Below are positions 1,048 to 57,254 of a stretch of 64,000 bases of DNA, piece after piece (positions within the stretch are counted from its first letter, which is position 1; each line of letters opens with the position of its first letter). The stretch is from an uncultured Acidobacteriota bacterium (GTDB lineage Bacteria > Acidobacteriota > UBA6911). The notes under the pieces are model-generated. The model was not told the origin of the DNA and ran no database searches. It saw only the letters and a program-made list of their open reading frames with translations. The stretch is from contig CAWHCF010000002.1 of NCBI GenBank assembly GCA_963827655.1, forward strand, positions 168,956 through 232,955, read 5' to 3'. The position numbers and the translations under genes were made by a program.

Positions 1048-3708
1048 ATGGACGCGACCCGGCGGGAAAGGCTCGGTGATGTGTTCGAACGCGCACTGGC
1101 GCTTCCCGTCGACCAGCGGCCCGCGTTTCTCGAAAGAGCTTGTCGGGACGACGCCGAACTGCACTCGGAGCTGATCTCGCTGCTGGCCTCGCACGAGGAG
1201 GCTCCGGACTGGCTGGAAGTACAGGCTGACGTAGTTCTCCCAGCGGCGCTCACCGGCATCGGCCAGGAGCTGCCCCCCGATCCTTCGATCGGGTCGAAAG
1301 TCTCACACTACGAAATCCTGGAGGAGCTCGGCGGCGGGGGCATGGGCCTCGTCTACAAAGCCCGCGATCTCGCACTCGATCGACTGGTCGCGCTCAAATT
1401 CCTGCCGGCTCACCTGAGCGCCGACGCGGAGGCGCAGGAACGTCTTAAGTCGGAGGCAAGGGCCGTCTCGGCCCTCGATCATCCGAACATCGCGGTCGTA
1501 CATGAGATTGCAGCGACCGATCCTCCTCCCGGGTCCCAGCAAGCAGCCCGGCTCTTCATCGTAATGGCCCACTACGGGGGTGAGACCATCAAGCGGAAGA
1601 TCGCCCGCGGTCCATTGCCCTTCCGGATGGCTCTCGATTTCGCCCTGCAGGTGGCCGACGGGCTGAGCAGTGCGCACGAGGCCGGAATCGTCCACAGGGA
1701 CATCAAACCAGCCAATCTGATCGTCACCGACCGCGGGCGCGTCATGATTGTGGATTTCGGATTGGCCAAGGCGGTCACCGGTGAGGTGACTGCGGAGGCG
1801 ATCGCACTCGGGACGGCCGCGTACATGAGCCCCGAGCAGACGCGCGGTGGTCCCGTCGATCACCGAACGGACATCTGGTCGCTGGGCGTGACGTTCTACG
1901 AGATGTTAACGGGCCGGCGTCCGTTCCGGGGCGAGAGCGATGGGACGCTGGCGCGCGCCATTCGCGACGACGAGCCCGAGCCGGTGGAGCGGCTGCGTCC
2001 CGAGATCCCACTCCCCCTCGCTGACATGGTTCAGCGCTGCCTCGCGAAGGATTCGGCCAACCGGTATCAACGCTGTGAAGATTTTATGGTCGCCCTACAG
2101 AGCGTCGATCCGCGAAGCACTCCCGTACGGCAAAGCATCTGGCTTCGCTTGTGGCGCAGGCCAGCTTGGCGGTACGCCGCGATGCTCGGCCTGATCGGAT
2201 CGATCCTCCTGGGATCATTCTATGGGATGCAGCTGTTGAAGCAACCAGACCCCTCCAGTTCGGCAGGTGATTCCGTTCTTGCCGCACCGCCGCAACTTGC
2301 CGTGCTGCCCTTTATCAACCTGCAAGCGAATGCGGAGACCGACTTTCTCGGCTATGCCCTCGCCGATCAGATCATCAGCCAGATAGGCTATGTGCGCGAC
2401 CTGGTCGCGCGTCCCTCAAGCGCGGTGCGCCGGTACCAGGGAAAGACGGTCGATCCTCGGCAGGTGGCGAAGGAGCTGCACGTCCAGTATGTGCTGACCG
2501 GGAACTACATAAAGGAAGGAGCCACGCTTCGCTTGAATGTCGAGCTGGTGAAGGCCGTCACTAACGAGGTGGTGTGGCGCGAGGGCATTCACGTGGCCTA
2601 CGACAGTCTGCTCGGCCTGCAAGACCGGGTTGCCGAGACGGTTTCCCGGAAGCTGGCTCTTGGCTTCACTCGTCAAGAGCGGGCGCGGATGCAAAAAGAC
2701 GCGTCCGCGCATCCGCTCGCGTATCACTACTACCTGCGCGCGCTCGCGCAGCCCGTCGGCACCGAGGAAGGCCTTCGTTCTGGCCGCGAACTGCTGATCC
2801 GCTCCGTAGAGCTGGATGCGTCGTTTGCGTCCGCACTTGCCGCGCTCGGGTTTCGCTCCTACGTGCTCGGCCACACGGGCTATGTCGCCGGGGAGGAGCG
2901 CCGCCGGATGCTCTCTGAAGCGGAACAGGCGCTTCAGAAAGCCCTCGCACTGAACGCGGAGCTGCTGAGCGGCCTCAGTTACCTGGCTATTCTTTATCTC
3001 GAGACGGCGCGCATCGAAGAAGCGTTGGACGTTGCGCAGCGGGCCCTTGCGATCAATCCGAACAGCTCGGACGCCTCAATTTCGCTCGGCCACATCTACC
3101 GGTTCGCCGGCGTATTTGACGAATCGGAGCGCACCTTCGCGCGGGCGAAGATGCTCGATCCCTATAATCCGAGATTGATCACGTCCGGCCTCACGTACCT
3201 CTACCACGCAAGGTACGACCAGGCGCTGGAGATGTTCGCTCTGACCGAGCAGTACGCCCCGTTTTCGCTGCTTTGGCAGGGCATGGCCCTCCTGGAGATG
3301 GGTCAGCTGGAGGAGGCTCGCAAGCGGTTCGATGCCGTTCTAGCGACGCGCACCACGAGCTCAGCGCGCTGGGTGGCCGAGGCCCATCTCGCGTACATGG
3401 CGCGCAATCTCGATCAAGGGCTGGCGGCGGTGCGCGTTCTGGAGCGTACGTTTGCGCCGGCCGGTGAAGGCGGAGAGGCGCTGTACCATTACGGCCGGCT
3501 GTACATCGCGCTCGGCGACTCGACCTCGGGGATCACCATGCTGGAGCGGGCGATAGACCGCGGGTTTTTCCCATATCCTTACCTCCGGGTCGATCGGTTC
3601 CTCGACCGCGCCCGCGCCGAGCCTGACTTCAACCGCGTCCTCGCAAAGGCAGAGACGCGCCACGAGACGTTCAAGAAAAGACTGTCGCGCGGCAGGCAAT
3701 CACTGTAG
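1048..3708 (+). CDS. Hanks-type Ser/Thr protein kinase with TM segment, TolB-N-like domain and TPR repeats
   Basis: LGGGGMGLVY, VALK, HRDIKPAN, DFG and YMSPEQ motifs; a hydrophobic helix, LAVLPF and C-terminal TPR-like repeats follow. Confidence 0.95.
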   Translation: MDATRRERLGDVFERALALPVDQRPAFLERACRDDAELHSELISLLASHEEAPDWLEVQADVVLPAALTGIGQELPPDPSIGSKVSHYEILEELGGGGMGLVYKARDLALDRLVALKFLPAHLSADAEAQERLKSEARAVSALDHPNIAVVHEIAATDPPPGSQQAARLFIVMAHYGGETIKRKIARGPLPFRMALDFALQVADGLSSAHEAGIVHRDIKPANLIVTDRGRVMIVDFGLAKAVTGEVTAEAIALGTAAYMSPEQTRGGPVDHRTDIWSLGVTFYEMLTGRRPFRGESDGTLARAIRDDEPEPVERLRPEIPLPLADMVQRCLAKDSANRYQRCEDFMVALQSVDPRSTPVRQSIWLRLWRRPAWRYAAMLGLIGSILLGSFYGMQLLKQPDPSSSAGDSVLAAPPQLAVLPFINLQANAETDFLGYALADQIISQIGYVRDLVARPSSAVRRYQGKTVDPRQVAKELHVQYVLTGNYIKEGATLRLNVELVKAVTNEVVWREGIHVAYDSLLGLQDRVAETVSRKLALGFTRQERARMQKDASAHPLAYHYYLRALAQPVGTEEGLRSGRELLIRSVELDASFASALAALGFRSYVLGHTGYVAGEERRRMLSEAEQALQKALALNAELLSGLSYLAILYLETARIEEALDVAQRALAINPNSSDASISLGHIYRFAGVFDESERTFARAKMLDPYNPRLITSGLTYLYHARYDQALEMFALTEQYAPFSLLWQGMALLEMGQLEEARKRFDAVLATRTTSSARWVAEAHLAYMARNLDQGLAAVRVLERTFAPAGEGGEALYHYGRLYIALGDSTSGITMLERAIDRGFFPYPYLRVDRFLDRARAEPDFNRVLAKAETRHETFKKRLSRGRQSL

Positions 3709-51196: not shown

Positions 51197-51647
51197 CGGC
51201 CAGGTGATCAAGACCCGTAGGAACGATCGCATCATCAGGGTCGAGCGAAGAACGCTAATTGGCGACACGTGGAGATTCGAAGAGACGCGGCACGACTCCG
51301 AAGACTCCTCGAAACTGAACACTTCTTTCGTCGAGCGGCTGAACCTCACGATCCGACAGGGCTCAGCCTATCTTTTTCGGCGGACGATCAGCCACGCCCG
51401 ATGGCATGAGCGTCTCGAGGATCACCTGGAGTTGCTTCGCTGCTACTATAACTTCGTCAGGCCTCACAGGGCGTTGAAATTCGGAGGCGAGGTTAGGACG
51501 CCAGCGATGCAAGCTGGGCTGACCACCCGACGGCTGACGTTAAGGGAGATCTTCCCGTCGCCGATGCTTCCTTCGTTTTCGGAGAAAGTCAAGTTCGGGC
51601 AATCGACCGTTTTGGTCGTTGTCGATGAGACGCGGATGCCTCTGGCA
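51197..51647 (+). mobile_element. IS1-family transposase 3' portion
   Basis: NTSFVERLNLTIR, YYNFVRPH and RTPAMQAGL; the first 139 bp are ~91% identical to 44196-44334. Confidence 0.85.
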
Positions 51648-51830
51648 GGTATTGTCAACTTGGCATCCTCGGATCGAGGTCGGGACGGTTGTGGGGTTGA
51701 CGCCTTGATTGATCAGGCAAATGTTACTTCATGCCAAATAAGGAAGGAGCGGGCTCGCAATAGCCGGTGGTTGGCTGACCGGAGCAGGTGCCGTCCAACT
51801 CGGAAGAGATTGTGGATGATTCCGTGGACC
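51648..51830 (-). mobile_element. IS6 right end, interrupted by the IS66-derived element
   Basis: Identical to 41128-41311 except one indel in an A-run. Confidence 0.9.
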
Positions 51831-51913
51831 GTGTCCTTTCGGCACGCTTGCATGACTTGACCAACTGAACTTGCTACCGTCTGCTTTTGCCCTCAACGGG
51901 GCGAGGAGGAAAG

Positions 51914-52405
51914 ATGGTAGCCAACCAAGTTCAGGATCTTCCCCCTGACATACGAAAGACTTACCGGCGTTTCGAACGGTGGCGGAGCTTGCACACCGGG
52001 CGGTACCGCTTGCCGATTCCGGAGCCGTTGTGGGCTGGGGCTGCGGAACTGGCACGGGTGCACGGGGTTTTCCGCATCGCGAGGGCTCTGCATCTGGAGT
52101 ACGGCAAACTGAAAGAGCTGGCAGGAGCGGTGGGTCCGGCGACAAAGAAGCCGGCAGACAAGACCCCGGCAGCCTTTCCCCGAACCCAGGCTGGCCGGCA
52201 CAGTCAGACCGCGGTCTTGAGCCGCACGCGATCACGGCCTCGACCACCGGCGTTTGTCGAGCTGATCGCACCGAGCCCCGGCACTTCCCTTGAATGCCGG
52301 GTGGAATTGGAGGGACGGCGCGGGAAGATGAGGATCGAATTCAAGGGCATCGCCACAGCGGAACTGGTGGCGCTCGGCCGGGCGTTGTGGGACGGTGAGG
52401 CATGA
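51914..52405 (+). CDS. tnpA: IS66 TnpA-like accessory protein
   Basis: RBS GAGGAGG; IPEPLW..A, PPAFVEL and CRVEL; overlaps tnpB. Confidence 0.7.
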   Translation: MVANQVQDLPPDIRKTYRRFERWRSLHTGRYRLPIPEPLWAGAAELARVHGVFRIARALHLEYGKLKELAGAVGPATKKPADKTPAAFPRTQAGRHSQTAVLSRTRSRPRPPAFVELIAPSPGTSLECRVELEGRRGKMRIEFKGIATAELVALGRALWDGEA

Positions 52406-52770
52406 TCCAGATCACGCCACAGATGCGCATCCTGGTGGCGTTGGAGGCCGTGGACGGTCGCAAAGGCATCGATTCGCTGGCGCGCCTGTGTCAGGAGAAG
52501 CTCCGAGCGGACCCTTTTTCAGGCTGCTTGTTTGTTTTTCGGAGCCGGCGCGGCACGGCGATTCGTATTCTGGTGTACGACGGCCAAGGGTTTTGGCTGG
52601 CGCAGAAGCGACTGTCACGGGGGCGTTTTCGCTGGTGGCCGACAGGCCGCGATGCATGGGAAGTAGCGAAGTGTCTGGAGGCGCATCAACTGCAGGTTTT
52701 GTTGGCGGCGGGTGACCCCACTGCCACGCAGGCAGCGCCGCTGTGGCGGCGCGTAAGCGCGTCGGGGTGA
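52402..52770 (+). CDS. tnpB: IS66 accessory protein TnpB
   Basis: VDGRKGIDSL, LFVFRSR, YDGQGFWLAQKRL and F.WWP. Confidence 0.93.
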   Translation: MIQITPQMRILVALEAVDGRKGIDSLARLCQEKLRADPFSGCLFVFRSRRGTAIRILVYDGQGFWLAQKRLSRGRFRWWPTGRDAWEVAKCLEAHQLQVLLAAGDPTATQAAPLWRRVSASG

Positions 52771-52824
52771 GAAACGGCCGCTTCAGACTTGCGTTCTATC
52801 GGCGCTTCTGCTACCCTGCCGGAC

Positions 52825-53709
52825 ATGGAGGTGTTCCGTTACCGTGGGCGTGTGATCAGCGCAGCCGAGGTGGAGTTCATTCGCCAGCTAATCGCGTCGC
52901 TTCCGGAGGCCAGCCGTCGCCAGCTGTCCTTGAAGCTGTGCGAGGCATGGCAGTGGAAGCAGGCCAATGGTGCCCCGCGCGACATGGTGTGCCGAGGGTT
53001 GCTGCTCGGGCTCGAGCGGGCGGGGCAGCTCGAGTTACCAGCGGTGCATCATGTCCATCGCAATGCGTCGACTCGACGCAGAGCGAAAGAAGGCGAAGTG
53101 GTATTGGCGCCACTCGATACCACACGGCTCGACGCTCCGCTCGGGGCGATCCGGCCCCTTGAGTTCCGGCAGGTGCGGCGGGGGCCGGAGGAACCACTCT
53201 TTAATCACCTCATCGCCGAGTACCATCCGCTTGGATACACGCAGCCGGTGGGGGAGCACCTCAAGTACCTGGTGTATGCCGCGGGCCGTCCGATTGCCTG
53301 CCTGGCATGGTCGTCGGCGCCGCGACATCTGAGCGCCCGTGATCGTTACATCGGCTGGACACCTGAGGCGCGGCGCCGCAATCTCCGTTTCCTGGCCTAC
53401 AATCCTCGCTTCCTCGTCTTGCCCTGGGTCCAGGTTCGGCACCTGGCATCGCACATTCTGGGTCAGATGGCGCGGCGGCTCGCGGGCGACTGGGAACGTC
53501 GCTACCATCACCCGGTCTATTTTCTGGAAACCTTCGTCGACCCTGAGCGGCACCGCGGCACCTGTTATCGGGCTGCGAACTGGGTAGTGATGGGGCGGAC
53601 GACAGGCCGGGGGAACAACTGTCCTGACAAGCGACCGAACCGTTCGATCAAGGAAGTGCTGGGCTATCCGCTCACGCCGCGCTTTCGTGAGTTGCTTGCT
53701 GAGGGATAG
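52825..53709 (+). CDS. DUF4338 (DruA-domain, Mom/GNAT-like) protein
   Basis: YHPLGY, RDRYIGW, NPRFLVLPW, LASHIL and LETFVDP...GTCYRAANW..MGRT.GRG. Confidence 0.85.
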   Translation: MEVFRYRGRVISAAEVEFIRQLIASLPEASRRQLSLKLCEAWQWKQANGAPRDMVCRGLLLGLERAGQLELPAVHHVHRNASTRRRAKEGEVVLAPLDTTRLDAPLGAIRPLEFRQVRRGPEEPLFNHLIAEYHPLGYTQPVGEHLKYLVYAAGRPIACLAWSSAPRHLSARDRYIGWTPEARRRNLRFLAYNPRFLVLPWVQVRHLASHILGQMARRLAGDWERRYHHPVYFLETFVDPERHRGTCYRAANWVVMGRTTGRGNNCPDKRPNRSIKEVLGYPLTPRFRELLAEG

Positions 53710-53710
53710 G

Positions 53711-55344
53711 ATGAAGCCCGGATGCGAGGTGATTGAAGTGAATTTTGAAGAACTGACAGCGCTGATGGAGCGGGCGCGCCAGGGGCCGTTGGGAGAAGAG
53801 GATTGTCGGAAGCTTGAAGCCGCGATCCAGGCCCTGAGCCATCTGATCGAGATGATCGGGGACAAGGACACGACGATCAGCCGCCTGCGCGCGCTATTGG
53901 CGAAGCCGAGCACGGAGAAGACGAGCAAAGTCCTCGAGCAGGCGGGCCTGGGAGCGACTCCGAAAAGCAGCCCCTCCCCGTCGTCGAGCGGGAAGCCCAA
54001 ACCGGGGCACGGCCGCAATGGCGCGGCGGCATATCGCGAAGCCCGGCGCATCCGGATTGCGCACACCGCGTTGACGCCGGGGGATCGCTGCCCGCGCTGT
54101 TTGAAGGGCAAGGTCTACAGGCAGAAGGACCCCGCCCTGCGGATCCGCGTGGTAGGCCAGGCGCCGATCGAGGCAACGGTCTACGAGTTGGAACGCCTGC
54201 GCTGCAATCTGTGCGGTGACCTTTTCGAGGCGGAAGCGCCGGAGGGCGTGGGTGAGAAGAAATACGACGAGACGGCGGCGGCGATGATCGCGTTGCTGAA
54301 GTACGGAAGCGGTGTCCCGTTCTATCGGCTGGACGGGCTGGAGGCGAGTCTGGGCACTCCGTTGCCGAGCTCGACGCAGTGGGAGATTGTAGCGGAAACC
54401 GCGGGCGTTATTCGTCCCGCTTTCGACGAACTGATCCGCCAGGCGGCACAGGGGGAGGTTTTTTATAACGACGACACGAGTATGAAGGTCCTGGCGCTGG
54501 CGCGTCCTCGCCGCGCGGAGGTGAAAGAAGCATCCGCTAGCTCCGATGAGCGGACGGGGCTGTTCACTTCGGGGATCGTGTCGACGCGGCAGGGGCAGCG
54601 GGTGGCGCTGTTCTTCACCGGGCGGCGGCACGCGGGCGAGAACTTCGCCCGGGTGCTGGCGCATCGGGCTGAGGGGCTGTCTCCGCCGATTCAGATGTGC
54701 GACGCGCTTTCGCGCAACCTCCCCAAGCTGCCGAAGAAGCTGGAAATCATGGTGGGGAACTGCAATGCCCATGCCCGGCGTCACTTTGTGGAGGTGACGC
54801 CCAACTTTCCCGAGCAGTGTCGGTTCGTGCTGGAATCCCTAGGCCAGGTCTACGGCTATGATGCTCAGGCCGAGGAGCAAGGTCTATCGCCGCAGGAGCG
54901 GCTGCGCTTTCACCAGGAGCACAGCCTCCCGTGATGAATGCTCTGCACGCGTGGCTAGAGGCCCAGTTTGCCGAGAAGAAAGTCGAACCGAACTCCGGCT
55001 TGGGCTCCGCGATCGCATACGTCCTCCGTCACTGGGATCGCCTGACGCTCTTCCTGCGCCAGGCGGGCGCTCCGCTGGATTCGAACATCGTCGAGCGCGC
55101 CCTGAAGAGAGCGATTCTGCATCGAAAGAACTCCCTGTTTTATAAGACCGAGAATGGCGCCGAGGTGGGCGATCTGTTCATGAGCCTCATCCACACCTGC
55201 GAACTGAACGGCGTCAATCCCTTCGACTACCTCACCGAATTGCAGAAACATGCTGCGGAGCTGATCCGGGATCCGGCGGCGTGGACGCCGTGGAATTACC
55301 GCCAGACTCTCGAGCAGGCCGGCACGGGCGTGGATTCCTCGTAG
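53711..55344 (+). CDS. tnpC: IS66 DDE transposase TnpC; frameshift near 54930
   Basis: KPGHGRNG, CPRC..CNLC, YNDDT, MCDA, CNAHARR and DSNIVERALK. Confidence 0.92.
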
Positions 55345-55398
55345 GCCCTGCCTGGCCGAAAACCATAGATTACGGCATGGCAGATTGACCGTTTCGAA

Positions 55399-56058
55399 AT
55401 GGGCCAAAAACACAGGCTTTCGAGATCCCGATCCGCAGGGGTTTTTGGCCACCCCTTCGGACGAACCCAAACTGCACTGCGTGTGGGGCTTTACGCGCGC
55501 GTATCGACGCACGACCAGCAGACTCTGCCCATGCAGAACCGCGCGATGCGGGAATACGCCACCCGCCGGGGCTGGAGAATCGTTCTACAGGTGAAGGAAA
55601 TCGGCTCGGGCGCTTCTCAGCGTGAGAGAAGGGAGCAGCTGCTGGAGGCGGCGCGGCGCCGGGAGATCGACCTCGTATTGGTGTGGCGGCTGGATCGCTG
55701 GGGCCGGTCGGTGACGGACCTGCTGGCGACGCTGCAGGAACTGGAGCATCTGGGAGTCGGTTTCGTGTCGCTGACGGAGGCGTTGGATCTGACGACACCG
55801 GCCGGTCGAGCGATGGCCGGCTTGCTGGCGGTCTTCGCCGAGTTCGAGCGGGAGATCCTGCGTGAGCGGGTACGGGCCGGCCTGGCCCACGCACGCCAGA
55901 ACGGCCAACGTCTGGGTCGGCCGCTGACGGCGGCACTCCACGCCGACCAAGTCCGGAAGCTCTACCGCACCGGCGTCACCAAAGCCGAGATCGCCCGCCG
56001 GTTGCAGATGGGCCGTACATCCGTACGCCGTATCTTGAAAGAAAGGACAGAACGATGA
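55399..56058 (+). CDS. Serine resolvase/invertase
   Basis: YARVST, VWRLDRWGRS, FAEFERE, LGRP and a C-terminal HTH. Confidence 0.93.
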   Translation: MGQKHRLSRSRSAGVFGHPFGRTQTALRVGLYARVSTHDQQTLPMQNRAMREYATRRGWRIVLQVKEIGSGASQRERREQLLEAARRREIDLVLVWRLDRWGRSVTDLLATLQELEHLGVGFVSLTEALDLTTPAGRAMAGLLAVFAEFEREILRERVRAGLAHARQNGQRLGRPLTAALHADQVRKLYRTGVTKAEIARRLQMGRTSVRRILKERTER

Positions 56059-56447
56059 GCAGCCCTTCTACGGCATTCCATAAGATCTGGATCGAACAGT
56101 GTGCGGCGACGGAAGACATCCGCCAACGCTTCGGATTGGAAAGCGCCCTGGATTATCTCATCGGGGAGAAACTCTTCACCTTTGTAGAGGCCTCAGAAAA
56201 AGATCACCTGTTCGAGCAGGAGTTGCCGGCCTTCGTCGCTGAAATCCGACGGCTGTTTACTGCCCAAGAGATTCGCGCCTATCTTGAGCGCCTGGAGCGG
56301 ACCAAGTTCCTTGCGCCCGTAGAACCAGAGTTAGAGATGGATGATCTGGACGACGAAGCCGAGGAAGAACCTTGGCCGAACAATCCCGTGATGGGAGCGG
56401 AAGAACTGCTTCGTTTTTGCCGTGTCCGGCAACTTCTCCAATACTGA
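56055..56447 (+). CDS. Hypothetical passenger protein
   Basis: ATGA overlap with the resolvase; IWIEQC..ALDYLIGEKL and an acidic tract. Confidence 0.75.
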   Translation: MSSPSTAFHKIWIEQCAATEDIRQRFGLESALDYLIGEKLFTFVEASEKDHLFEQELPAFVAEIRRLFTAQEIRAYLERLERTKFLAPVEPELEMDDLDDEAEEEPWPNNPVMGAEELLRFCRVRQLLQY

Positions 56448-56469
56448 CGCGACAGGAGGGACTTCACCC

Positions 56470-56838
56470 ATGGCCAAAACCAAAAGGGACCCTGTGCGAG
56501 AGGAGCGAATCCGCAACGAAGCGGTCGTGGATGCTTATGGGCCGGAGGAGCAGGCCCTGGGTTGGTATTACTACCTGGAGAACAAAATCCGCTTTCCGTT
56601 CCAGGCAAGGTGCACCGTCACGAAAGCCGTTTCACCACTCCGCAAAGGCGAAACAGTCGAAGTATGGCGCCTGGCACCGGAAGACGCCTGCTCCACGGAC
56701 ATGCTGGTGCAGATCCGCTGGCACGGCCGAACCATAGCGGTGCCCCTGTCCCAACTGGCTGGAGTGAAGGTGGACGAATCAACCGCCGAGGCCGTTGGCG
56801 ACTGGCATTACTGGGTGGCGCAAGGCTACTGCTTCTGA
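56470..56838 (+). CDS. CcbP-like 'calcium-binding' family protein
   Basis: RBS AGGAGG; VVDAYGPEEQALGWYYYLE...FPF, VPLSQL and DWHYW. Confidence 0.78.
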   Translation: MAKTKRDPVREERIRNEAVVDAYGPEEQALGWYYYLENKIRFPFQARCTVTKAVSPLRKGETVEVWRLAPEDACSTDMLVQIRWHGRTIAVPLSQLAGVKVDESTAEAVGDWHYWVAQGYCF

Positions 56839-56895
56839 GAAACCACCCTGCCCCGCCTCTCTTGCCGCATCTACGCAAGCCTACCGAAAGCTCAC

Positions 56896-57254
56896 GATGC
56901 ATGTTCGGCTTCGACGGTAATCTTTCGCGGCCAAATCGACATCTCGCACAATGGCGCAGAAGCGCTGACATTAAACGGGAACAGCCTTGCCGAAATTCGC
57001 GCGGGCATCTGCAGGTCAACAACAATGCAGGAGGGTTGTTAATCAGCACTCACTCCACTCTCTGGAAATCTTTGGATTTCAGACCTGTCAACGGAGCCAA
57101 CTCACAACTAACGGGAACCAGGGTCCAGGAAATCGTTATCGGTAGTGGACACCTCTTTGTGGCAGGAAGCACGTTCGCGCCCGGGGGCGTTCTGATTACA
57201 TGCTGTTCATCGAACCCGGTCTATGAGTGCTGCGCCAGATGCGGCCCTTTCTAG
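56896..57254 (+). pseudogene. 3' remnant of a probable beta-helix-like protein
   Basis: ISHNGAEALTLNGNS..HLQVNNNAGGLLI pattern across shifting frames, abutting the IS66 IRR. Confidence 0.35.

Follow-up and report, generated by a model that had tools for sequence, protein, structure and literature searches.

A DUF4338 gene with a predicted Mom-like domain in the transposase operon of an IS66-type element of Acidobacteriota

IS66 is a large and poorly understood family of insertion sequences (IS), and accessory enzymes are rare in IS operons. Canonical IS66-family elements, such as IS66, IS679 and ISRm14, have the gene order tnpA-tnpB-tnpC, terminal inverted repeats (IRs) and 8-bp target duplications. 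Here we describe an IS66-type element in which a fourth gene, encoding a DUF4338 protein, is set between tnpB and tnpC. The element lies in a stretch of 64,000 nucleotides from an uncultured Acidobacteriota bacterium (GTDB lineage UBA6911; assembly GCA_963827655.1, contig CAWHCF010000002.1, positions 168,956 to 232,955 of the forward strand), hereafter called the window; all coordinates refer to it unless a related locus is named. The DUF4338 gene is real, holds a fixed place in the operons of related elements and encodes a protein whose enzyme domain appears most like that of Mom of bacteriophage Mu, the one GCN5-like acetyltransferase (GNAT) known to modify DNA bases.

According to the passages available of PMC13219725, Mom transfers glycine from Gly-tRNA(Gly) onto N6 of adenine in double-stranded DNA. 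The same passages give residues R111, S124, D149 and R151 as essential and H58, Y59 and Y159 as important, report that a helix-turn-helix (HTH)-like insertion at about residues 175-209 is required for activity, and superpose Mom with TacT and FemX. DUF4338 has been met in other settings. It is the family of DruA, a component of the defence system Druantia type I (Pfam family PF14236), and it has been called a GNAT domain at the N-terminus of some DndF proteins (PMC10853773). The DndF setting is likewise one of DNA modification and restriction, but the domain is there a variable N-terminal part of a defence protein, and the accessible part of that paper draws no link to transposases or Mom. DruA-like proteins were also reported in six Synechococcus phages, in the part seen of 10.1101/2025.08.05.668817, and the passages shown of a preprint on YprA and Druantia (10.1101/2025.09.15.676423) hold nothing on the DruA fold. 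Our literature search, which left ISfinder and subscription journals outside its scope, found nothing linking DUF4338 or Mom-like domains to insertion sequences.

The DUF4338 protein and its resemblance to Mom

The gene and the domains of its product are as follows:

52825..53709, + strand: DUF4338 gene, with a winged-helix-like N-terminal domain (residues 1 to about 75, modest confidence), a basic low-confidence linker and a predicted Mom-like GNAT domain (about residues 105-292)

The open reading frame (ORF) runs from the ATG at 52825 to a TAG stop at 53707-53709, encodes 294 amino acids and is intact; between its stop and the ATG at 53711, where the IS66 transposase frame begins, lies a single base (53710). 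This is the arrangement given in a preliminary description of the locus (an intact ORF between tnpB and tnpC, ending 1 bp before the tnpC ATG), and both the sequence and the Pfam matches of the neighbours bear it out. The three motifs listed there are all present in the translated ORF, YHPLGY at residues 133-138, RFLVLPW at residues 195-201 and LETFVDPERHRGTCYRAANW at residues 234-253, and membership of DUF4338 was assigned correctly: the protein matches PF14236 with an E-value of 5.1e-31 and 108.4 bits, the curated gathering cut-off being 27. The match places residues 64-264 on profile positions 3-222 of 297. Neither PADLOC (E<=0.01) nor NCBIfam holds a model that the protein matches.

Could the protein simply be the DruA of a Druantia type I system, with which it shares the family PF14236? 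We tried and rejected this assignment, given the absence of a PADLOC match and of DruB-E nearby, the partial cover of the profile and the transposase neighbours. A canonical full-length DruA from the same phylum (locus L082) covers the whole Pfam profile and reaches 2.2e-123 on the PADLOC DruA model, and Druantia type I further comprises druB to druE, including the very large DruE helicase, whereas the window gene is flanked by tnpB and tnpC. The preliminary description had stated that no other Druantia gene is present. This holds as far as tested, that is, for the window ORFs of at least 700 residues: there are five, the largest of 1100 residues, and none matches a Druantia model in PADLOC. 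A quick maximum-likelihood tree built from 39 sequences placed all 35 transposon-linked forms on one side of a long branch with 99% SH-aLRT support, and three full-length DruA proteins and the protein of locus L107 on the other.

We modelled the protein with AlphaFold2 on a 53-sequence alignment, obtaining a mean pLDDT of 91.1, and residues 105-292 of the model adopt a GNAT fold. Comparison with Mom and GNAT folds had been proposed in the preliminary description; with the model as query, Foldseek returned 271 GNAT-type matches at E<=1e-3, with Mom (8bv8_B) at rank 3, and in structure comparison Mom stands 1.6 Z units above the next GNAT. The top structural matches other than Mom are mostly protein or small-molecule N-acetyltransferases (NatF, RimI, SpeG, GCN5).

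The N-terminal region of about 75 residues was likewise noticed in the preliminary description, which took it to be helical; it is modelled instead as a small domain of strands and helices, and we regard it, with modest confidence, as winged-helix-like. Foldseek returned nothing at E<=1e-3 for this domain alone. A sequence-profile search of solved structures linked only the N-terminal domain to one of them, the winged-helix ribosomal protein eS25 (E 0.3), and gave no GNAT or Mom match. The domain is also present in DUF4338 forms attached to other transposases; Mom has no such extra domain, and its gene lies in a late phage operon with com rather than in a transposase operon.

At the sequence level the link to Mom has weak statistics, yet the evidence points one way. 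The Pfam Mom family, PF25680, matches 28 of the 53 aligned DUF4338 proteins at E<=1, the best at 1.7e-6, and one fused relative (P0235) passes the curated cut-off, with 29.6 bits against 27.1. Among named ESM-Atlas clusters, once those of DruA are set aside, phage Mom clusters come nearest; their scores of 0.87-0.89 stay under the 0.9 level, so that they count as leads only. We also aligned 34 sequences around Mu Mom and compared this alignment with that of DUF4338, profile against profile, using hhalign. The residue pairs below derive from this weak alignment (E 0.0034), conservation being counted over the 53 DUF4338 sequences; Mom numbering is that of the GenBank record plus 10, since H48-Y49 in the record corresponds to H58-Y59 in the publication.

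Mom S124, paired with S209: conserved in 52 of 53
Mom D149, paired with D239: D in 31 and E in 17 of 53
Mom R151, paired with R242: conserved in 43 of 53
Mom Y159, paired with Y248: conserved in 53 of 53
Mom H58, paired with H134: conserved in 52 of 53
Mom Y59, paired with position 135: Y in 37 of 53, P in the window protein

Most of the key residues are kept in this alignment, and among characterised proteins Mom appears to be the nearest relative of the GNAT domain.

The pyrophosphate of acyl-CoA is bound in GNATs by a signature, Q/R-x-x-G-x-G/A, at the junction of beta4 and alpha3. Inspecting the predicted structure and the 53 sequences by eye, we saw no such signature at this junction. It reads VQVRHLASH in the window protein and x-V-x-x-L-A-S-H in the family consensus, with no G-x-G/A, and the residue at position 205 varies, with P in 19 of the 53 sequences, K in 16 and R in 9. 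This would fit a donor other than acyl-CoA, and is not proof of one.

A conserved place in the operon, and association with unrelated transposases

DUF4338 is a large family: a word-indexed search returned at least 8000 homologues, and a full HMMER scan 8480 clusters at 50% identity. For the comparison of loci we scanned one genome per species and kept the best 80 of 206 relatives, mostly metagenome-assembled genomes of Acidobacteriota, with two labelled Verrucomicrobiota and two Proteobacteria. The preliminary description had called for a census of DUF4338 genes between tnpB and tnpC, and the gene does recur there. It is adjoined by tnpB upstream in 75 and by tnpC downstream in 79 of the 80 loci, and by both in 74; every locus that lacks either neighbour is cut by a contig end. 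Spacing is regular as well, with 47-77 nucleotides between tnpB and the DUF4338 gene in all loci but one (modes 57-59), and mostly +1 or +2 nucleotides from its stop to the start of tnpC (range -17 to +49). Pairwise dN/dS has a median of 0.16 and a range of 0.06-0.29 (951 pairs with dS of 0.05-1.5, from 63 distinct sequences). With its fixed position and purifying selection, the gene is neither a chance ORF nor a recent passenger but a conserved part of the operon that is under selection.

Copies within one genome show that the whole unit moves. They are 99.9-100% identical, share their end points, and lie at different sites between 8-bp target duplications; the units so delimited measure 4413 to 5401 bp and end in imperfect terminal IRs of about 22 bp that begin GTG(A/T)(G/C)(C/T)TT(T/C)CGG. 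The duplications found were:

Locus L041: ccgccgcc
Locus L046: ggtctggg
Locus L020: caccggtc
Locus L025: atttggac
Locus L006: gattgttc
Locus L029: aatgctcc

These elements apparently form an undescribed family of IS66-derived transposons, with the order tnpA-tnpB-DUF4338-tnpC, to which a serine resolvase and small cargo ORFs are often added downstream. Like canonical IS66, these elements encode TnpB (PF05717) followed by the DDE transposase TnpC (PF03050, NF033517), have genes that overlap or are closely coupled as well as terminal IRs, and make 8-bp duplications, the last being seen in the relatives of the window unit. What sets the family apart is the fourth gene between tnpB and tnpC, together with a serine resolvase and small ORFs within the IRs of units of 4.4-5.4 kb; in addition, the ORF at the tnpA position of the window unit has no family match. 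In two loci (L016, 674-4570; L017, 526-4110) about 3.9 kb separates tnpA from tnpB, which looks like a secondary insertion into the element.

DUF4338 is not confined to IS66-type operons. Among 301 genomes of the phylum, 27 contain a PF14236 match, some with up to 7 copies. We scanned ORFs of at least 250 residues in 29 loci from the other 26 genomes, with the following outcome:

DUF4338 followed by an IS66 transposase: 8 of 29 loci
DUF4338 fused to a Tn5-like transposase: 4 of 29 loci
Canonical DruA: 3 of 29 loci
DUF4338 beside DDE_Tnp_1: 2 of 29 loci
DUF4338 beside a DUF4277-bearing protein: 2 of 29 loci
DUF4338 beside an ISAs1-type protein: 1 of 29 loci
DUF4338 beside a DUF772 (IS5-type) protein: 1 of 29 loci
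No recognisable neighbour at E<=1e-5, or locus too short: 8 of 29 loci

One of the IS66 cases (L093) and one of the Tn5-like fusions (L110) come from a genome flagged as unpublished (G049). Longer library proteins carry an N-terminal DUF4338 fused to transposases of the DDE_5, ISAzo13, Tn5-like and ISAs1 types, or to an HTH_29/HTH_23 module, and a fused form on a RefSeq plasmid is annotated simply as 'ISAs1 family transposase'. At least five transposase types other than IS66 have short-form DUF4338 ahead of them or fused to them. The IS66-linked forms are not a single clade: at least three changes are needed on well-supported branches of the tree, which indicates more than one transfer of the module between transposase families.

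Two complete genomes of the same class (G148 and G260) have up to 7 matches each, mostly in open frames of 796 residues, and in the two frames that were scanned (L097, 1174-3507; L098, 1162-3483) DUF4338 is fused to a Tn5-like transposase. This would make it an active insertion sequence with a Mom-like module within the transposase.

The family is abundant in soil bacteria, and metagenomes from 14 studies of soil and rhizosphere contain near-identical words of the window element. At E<=1e-5, DUF4338 matches were found in 2 of 72,556 plasmid records and in none of the 50,697 phage records searched. This near absence from sequenced plasmids and phages may explain why the family has gone unnoticed.

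The mobile unit in the window

The window copy occupies 51831-56895, with terminal IRs at both ends, and is larger than an IS66. The gene order of the transposition operon had been described correctly; two points of the earlier picture need correction, as tnpC is broken in this copy and the element continues past tnpC to 56895. Besides the DUF4338 gene, its features are:

51831..51853, + strand: left terminal inverted repeat (GTGTCCTTTCGGCACGCTTGCAT...), placed by the onset of homology and the IR tips of same-genome copies
51914..52405, + strand: ORF of 163 residues at the tnpA position, named from its place in the operon
52402..52770, + strand: IS66 tnpB (PF05717, E 2.7e-27; NF033819, E 6.4e-26)
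53711..55344, + strand: IS66 tnpC (DDE transposase; PF03050, NF033517), broken into parts 53711-54934 and 54931-55344 in different frames
55354..55450, no strand assigned: three copies of GGCCRAAAAC (two direct, one inverted), a candidate resolvase or operator site
55483..56058, + strand: serine recombinase of resolvase/invertase type (PF00239, E 8.3e-42, plus HTH_7)
56055..56447, + strand: orfX, 130 residues, variable cargo without a family
56422..56838, + strand: orfY, 138 residues, CcbP-like cargo (PF11535, 'Calcium binding', E 9.1e-38)
56873..56895, - strand: right terminal inverted repeat (...GCAAGCCTACCGAAAGCTCAC), placed by sequence and the end of homology

Several observations converge on these boundaries. 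DNA homology with related loci begins at 51829-51831 in 18 of the 80, and continues past tnpC to end at 56838-56900, the right-end stops falling at 56892-56900. By eye, the two IRs match at 17 of their first 21 positions, and the left one agrees with the tips defined by same-genome copies. Contigs from an RNA library (run X20) match from exactly 51831 and up to exactly 56895 and are unlike the window outside these points, which supports both boundaries independently. The flanking 8-mers, CGTGGACC on the left and GATGCATG on the right, differ, so that this copy has no target-site duplication; it is also the sole copy in its 8.18-Mb assembly. To its left, the frame 51204-51860 resembles the C-terminal end of an rve-type (integrase core) transposase (PF13683, a weak match at E 0.003). 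The element may thus lie beside or within the remains of another IS, perhaps explaining the missing duplication.

The ORF at the tnpA position, which has no Pfam or NCBIfam match, recurs at the same place in related loci with 29-63% identity, and its stop overlaps the tnpB start (ATGA, 52402-52405). In tnpC, the PF03050 match is split between profile positions 4-206 and 208-283, as is that of NF033517. Compared with four related loci (L034, L004, L014 and L002), the lesion is a one-base deletion near 54926; where related loci include both parts (71 loci), a single frame runs through them without a break in 67. A DNA contig from a metagenome (run X1) has an extra base behind 54926, with 5 other differences over 526 bases. 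The lesion (54926-54934) could be real decay or an assembly error. Since this copy combines a tnpC frameshift with the lack of a target duplication and single-copy status, it is probably an inactive transposon relic, in which the DUF4338 frame is still intact.

The GGCCRAAAAC copies sit in the 138-bp spacer between tnpC and the resolvase gene. The motif occurs three times in the whole window, where 0.30 occurrences were expected, and three were reached in none of 100 shuffles; 42 of the 43 listed resolvase-bearing loci keep the inverted copy, which lies about 42 nucleotides ahead of the resolvase start. A role as resolvase or operator site is a candidate function for these repeats. The resolvase frame is open from 55399, and its PF00239 match begins at residue 31 of this long frame; the GTG at 55483 is the probable start. 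A resolvase lies inside the mobile unit in same-genome copies, and follows tnpC in 42 of the 62 related loci with at least 900 bp of sequence past tnpC. Its presence within the IRs suggests that some IS66-type elements form cointegrates that need resolution, or have an inversion switch. In one set of same-genome copies (L058, L060 and L062, units of about 4.69 kb), the resolvase is reduced to a matching fragment of 25 residues and about 1.4 kb lies between tnpC and the right end. In phage Mu (L112, 593-2103), the serine recombinase gene gin directly precedes com-mom; that a Mom-like gene is paired with a serine recombinase both there and in the window element is probably a coincidence.

Downstream of the resolvase, orfX (no Pfam match below E 0.01) is carried by a minority of related elements, and orfY by many. 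Elsewhere in the window, an 886-residue protein (1048-3708) has a Ser/Thr kinase domain and strong matches to PADLOC kinase models (PD-T4-6, E 7e-87); such kinases are common.

Possible functions of the DUF4338 protein

How might this protein serve the element? We propose, giving the idea somewhat less than an even chance, that it is a Mom-like acyl- or aminoacyl-transferase that acts on nucleic acid in concert with transposition. The protein would be catalytically active, its substrate would be a nucleic acid, most likely a DNA base, and it would be made together with the transposase through translational coupling. It would then act beside the transposase, either on the DNA of the element or at its target, and would help or regulate transposition instead of being free cargo. 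Since the short-form DUF4338 module always lies just before, or is welded to, the transposase in unrelated DDE families, the simplest expectation is that the two share a site of action. Its N-terminal winged-helix-like domain may stand in for Mom's HTH-like insertion.

The preliminary description had read the gene as a Mom/GNAT-like enzyme, and this is supported in part, by the fold and by most of the key residues. Several points weigh against our proposal. The window protein itself scores only 13.5 bits on PF25680 (E 0.058), below the cut-off of 27.1, and the profile-profile comparison with Mom, weak at the E-value given above, has a probability of 9% over 150 columns; with single sequences against Mu Mom it is weaker still (E 0.025, probability 2%). 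R111 of Mom (R101 in the record), which is the same in all aligned Mom sequences, belongs to an insertion of two residues where DUF4338 has a gap; the near-invariant R195 of DUF4338 (52 of 53) lies six positions upstream of that site. The HTH-like insertion also aligns to gaps, and between its last two strands the DUF4338 model has only an 18-residue loop (residues 259-276). Canonical three-gene IS66 elements transpose without a DUF4338 gene, which is therefore not required for IS66 chemistry as such.

Further points on the same side concern expression and activity. A sigma-70 promoter scan of 51700-57000 gave 0 sites where 0.6 were expected, terminator-like sites numbered 4 against 4.8 expected, and no other regulatory signal turned up within the element; these scans are uninformative, and the host bacteria may use other promoters. 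Metatranscriptome runs of two studies (X17 and X20) contain short contigs 95-99% like parts of the DUF4338 gene (53030-53330 and 52991-53195) and covering parts of tnpC, orfY and both ends, but these are close relatives and the libraries may contain DNA, so that they attest presence and not transcription, and stretches of the element that they leave uncovered carry no meaning. The searchable literature yielded no biochemical or genetic test of any DUF4338 protein. Finally, a GNAT beside a transposase could equally acylate a protein.

This last point leads to an alternative that we consider unlikely, namely that the GNAT tunes transposition by acetylating the transposase, TnpA/TnpB or a host protein. 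The GNAT fold and the N-acetyltransferases that make up most of its top structural matches besides Mom would suit this function, and tight coupling or fusion with transposases would bring enzyme and substrate together. Yet Mom surpasses the next GNAT in structure comparison and is the only family other than DruA matched at the sequence-profile level, the conserved residues are those reported to matter in Mom, and the acyl-CoA signature is not visible at its expected place. Association of the module with at least five unrelated transposase families further argues against one specific protein substrate.

Somewhat less probable to us is a role as cargo with no part in transposition, be it as a Mom-like modifier that shields transferred DNA or the replicon of the host from restriction, or as a minimal defence gene. 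Mom does exactly this for Mu, as far as the accessible passages go (PMC13219725; PMC7261163), DUF4338 also occurs as DruA in Druantia type I, and the element carries other cargo, in the form of the resolvase and the CcbP-like ORF. Against this, the gene sits within the transposase operon, away from the cargo end, other IS families have it fused to their transposase, and it is rare on plasmids and unmatched in phage records; the window protein matches no PADLOC model and has no Druantia partner among the large ORFs.

That the protein is a non-catalytic accessory, a DNA- or tRNA-binding pseudo-enzyme with an architectural or targeting part in the transpososome, we hold to be improbable. The N-terminal winged-helix-like domain is conserved in all transposon-linked forms and Mom's R111 and HTH-like insertion have no aligned counterpart, as such a factor might lead one to expect. 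However, S209, Y248, E235, H134 and R195 are near-invariant among sequences with only 34-40% identity, and near-invariant residues at the positions of Mom's catalytic site fit a retained active site better than a scaffold. Least probable is an addiction module of the element, in which the protein would be a TacT/AtaT-like GNAT toxin acetylating charged tRNA: GNATs that bind the tRNA acceptor end are structurally related, TacT and FemX having been superposed with Mom, but no antitoxin-like small gene is paired with the DUF4338 gene, whose neighbours are tnpB and tnpC, DUF4338 occurs fused to transposases and in up to 7 copies per genome, and an N-terminal winged-helix-like domain is, to our knowledge, not a feature of such toxins.

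A Mom-like transferase that acts with the transposase would be the first transposon-encoded base-hypermodifying activity tied to transposition, and would take tRNA-dependent DNA-modifying GNATs, a class defined only recently, beyond phages. For DruA, which is the first gene of Druantia type I and is uncharacterised, it would provide a concrete and testable idea. In a bolder version, which we find doubtful, a widespread class of transposons, made up of IS66-type elements together with five or more further DDE families, would use its own Mom-like enzyme to hypermodify DNA bases during transposition, with charged tRNA or another activated acyl donor. The modification might mark the ends, the donor site or the target, and so serve self-recognition, target immunity or coupling to the translational state of the cell, and DruA would be the DNA-marking component of Druantia type I.

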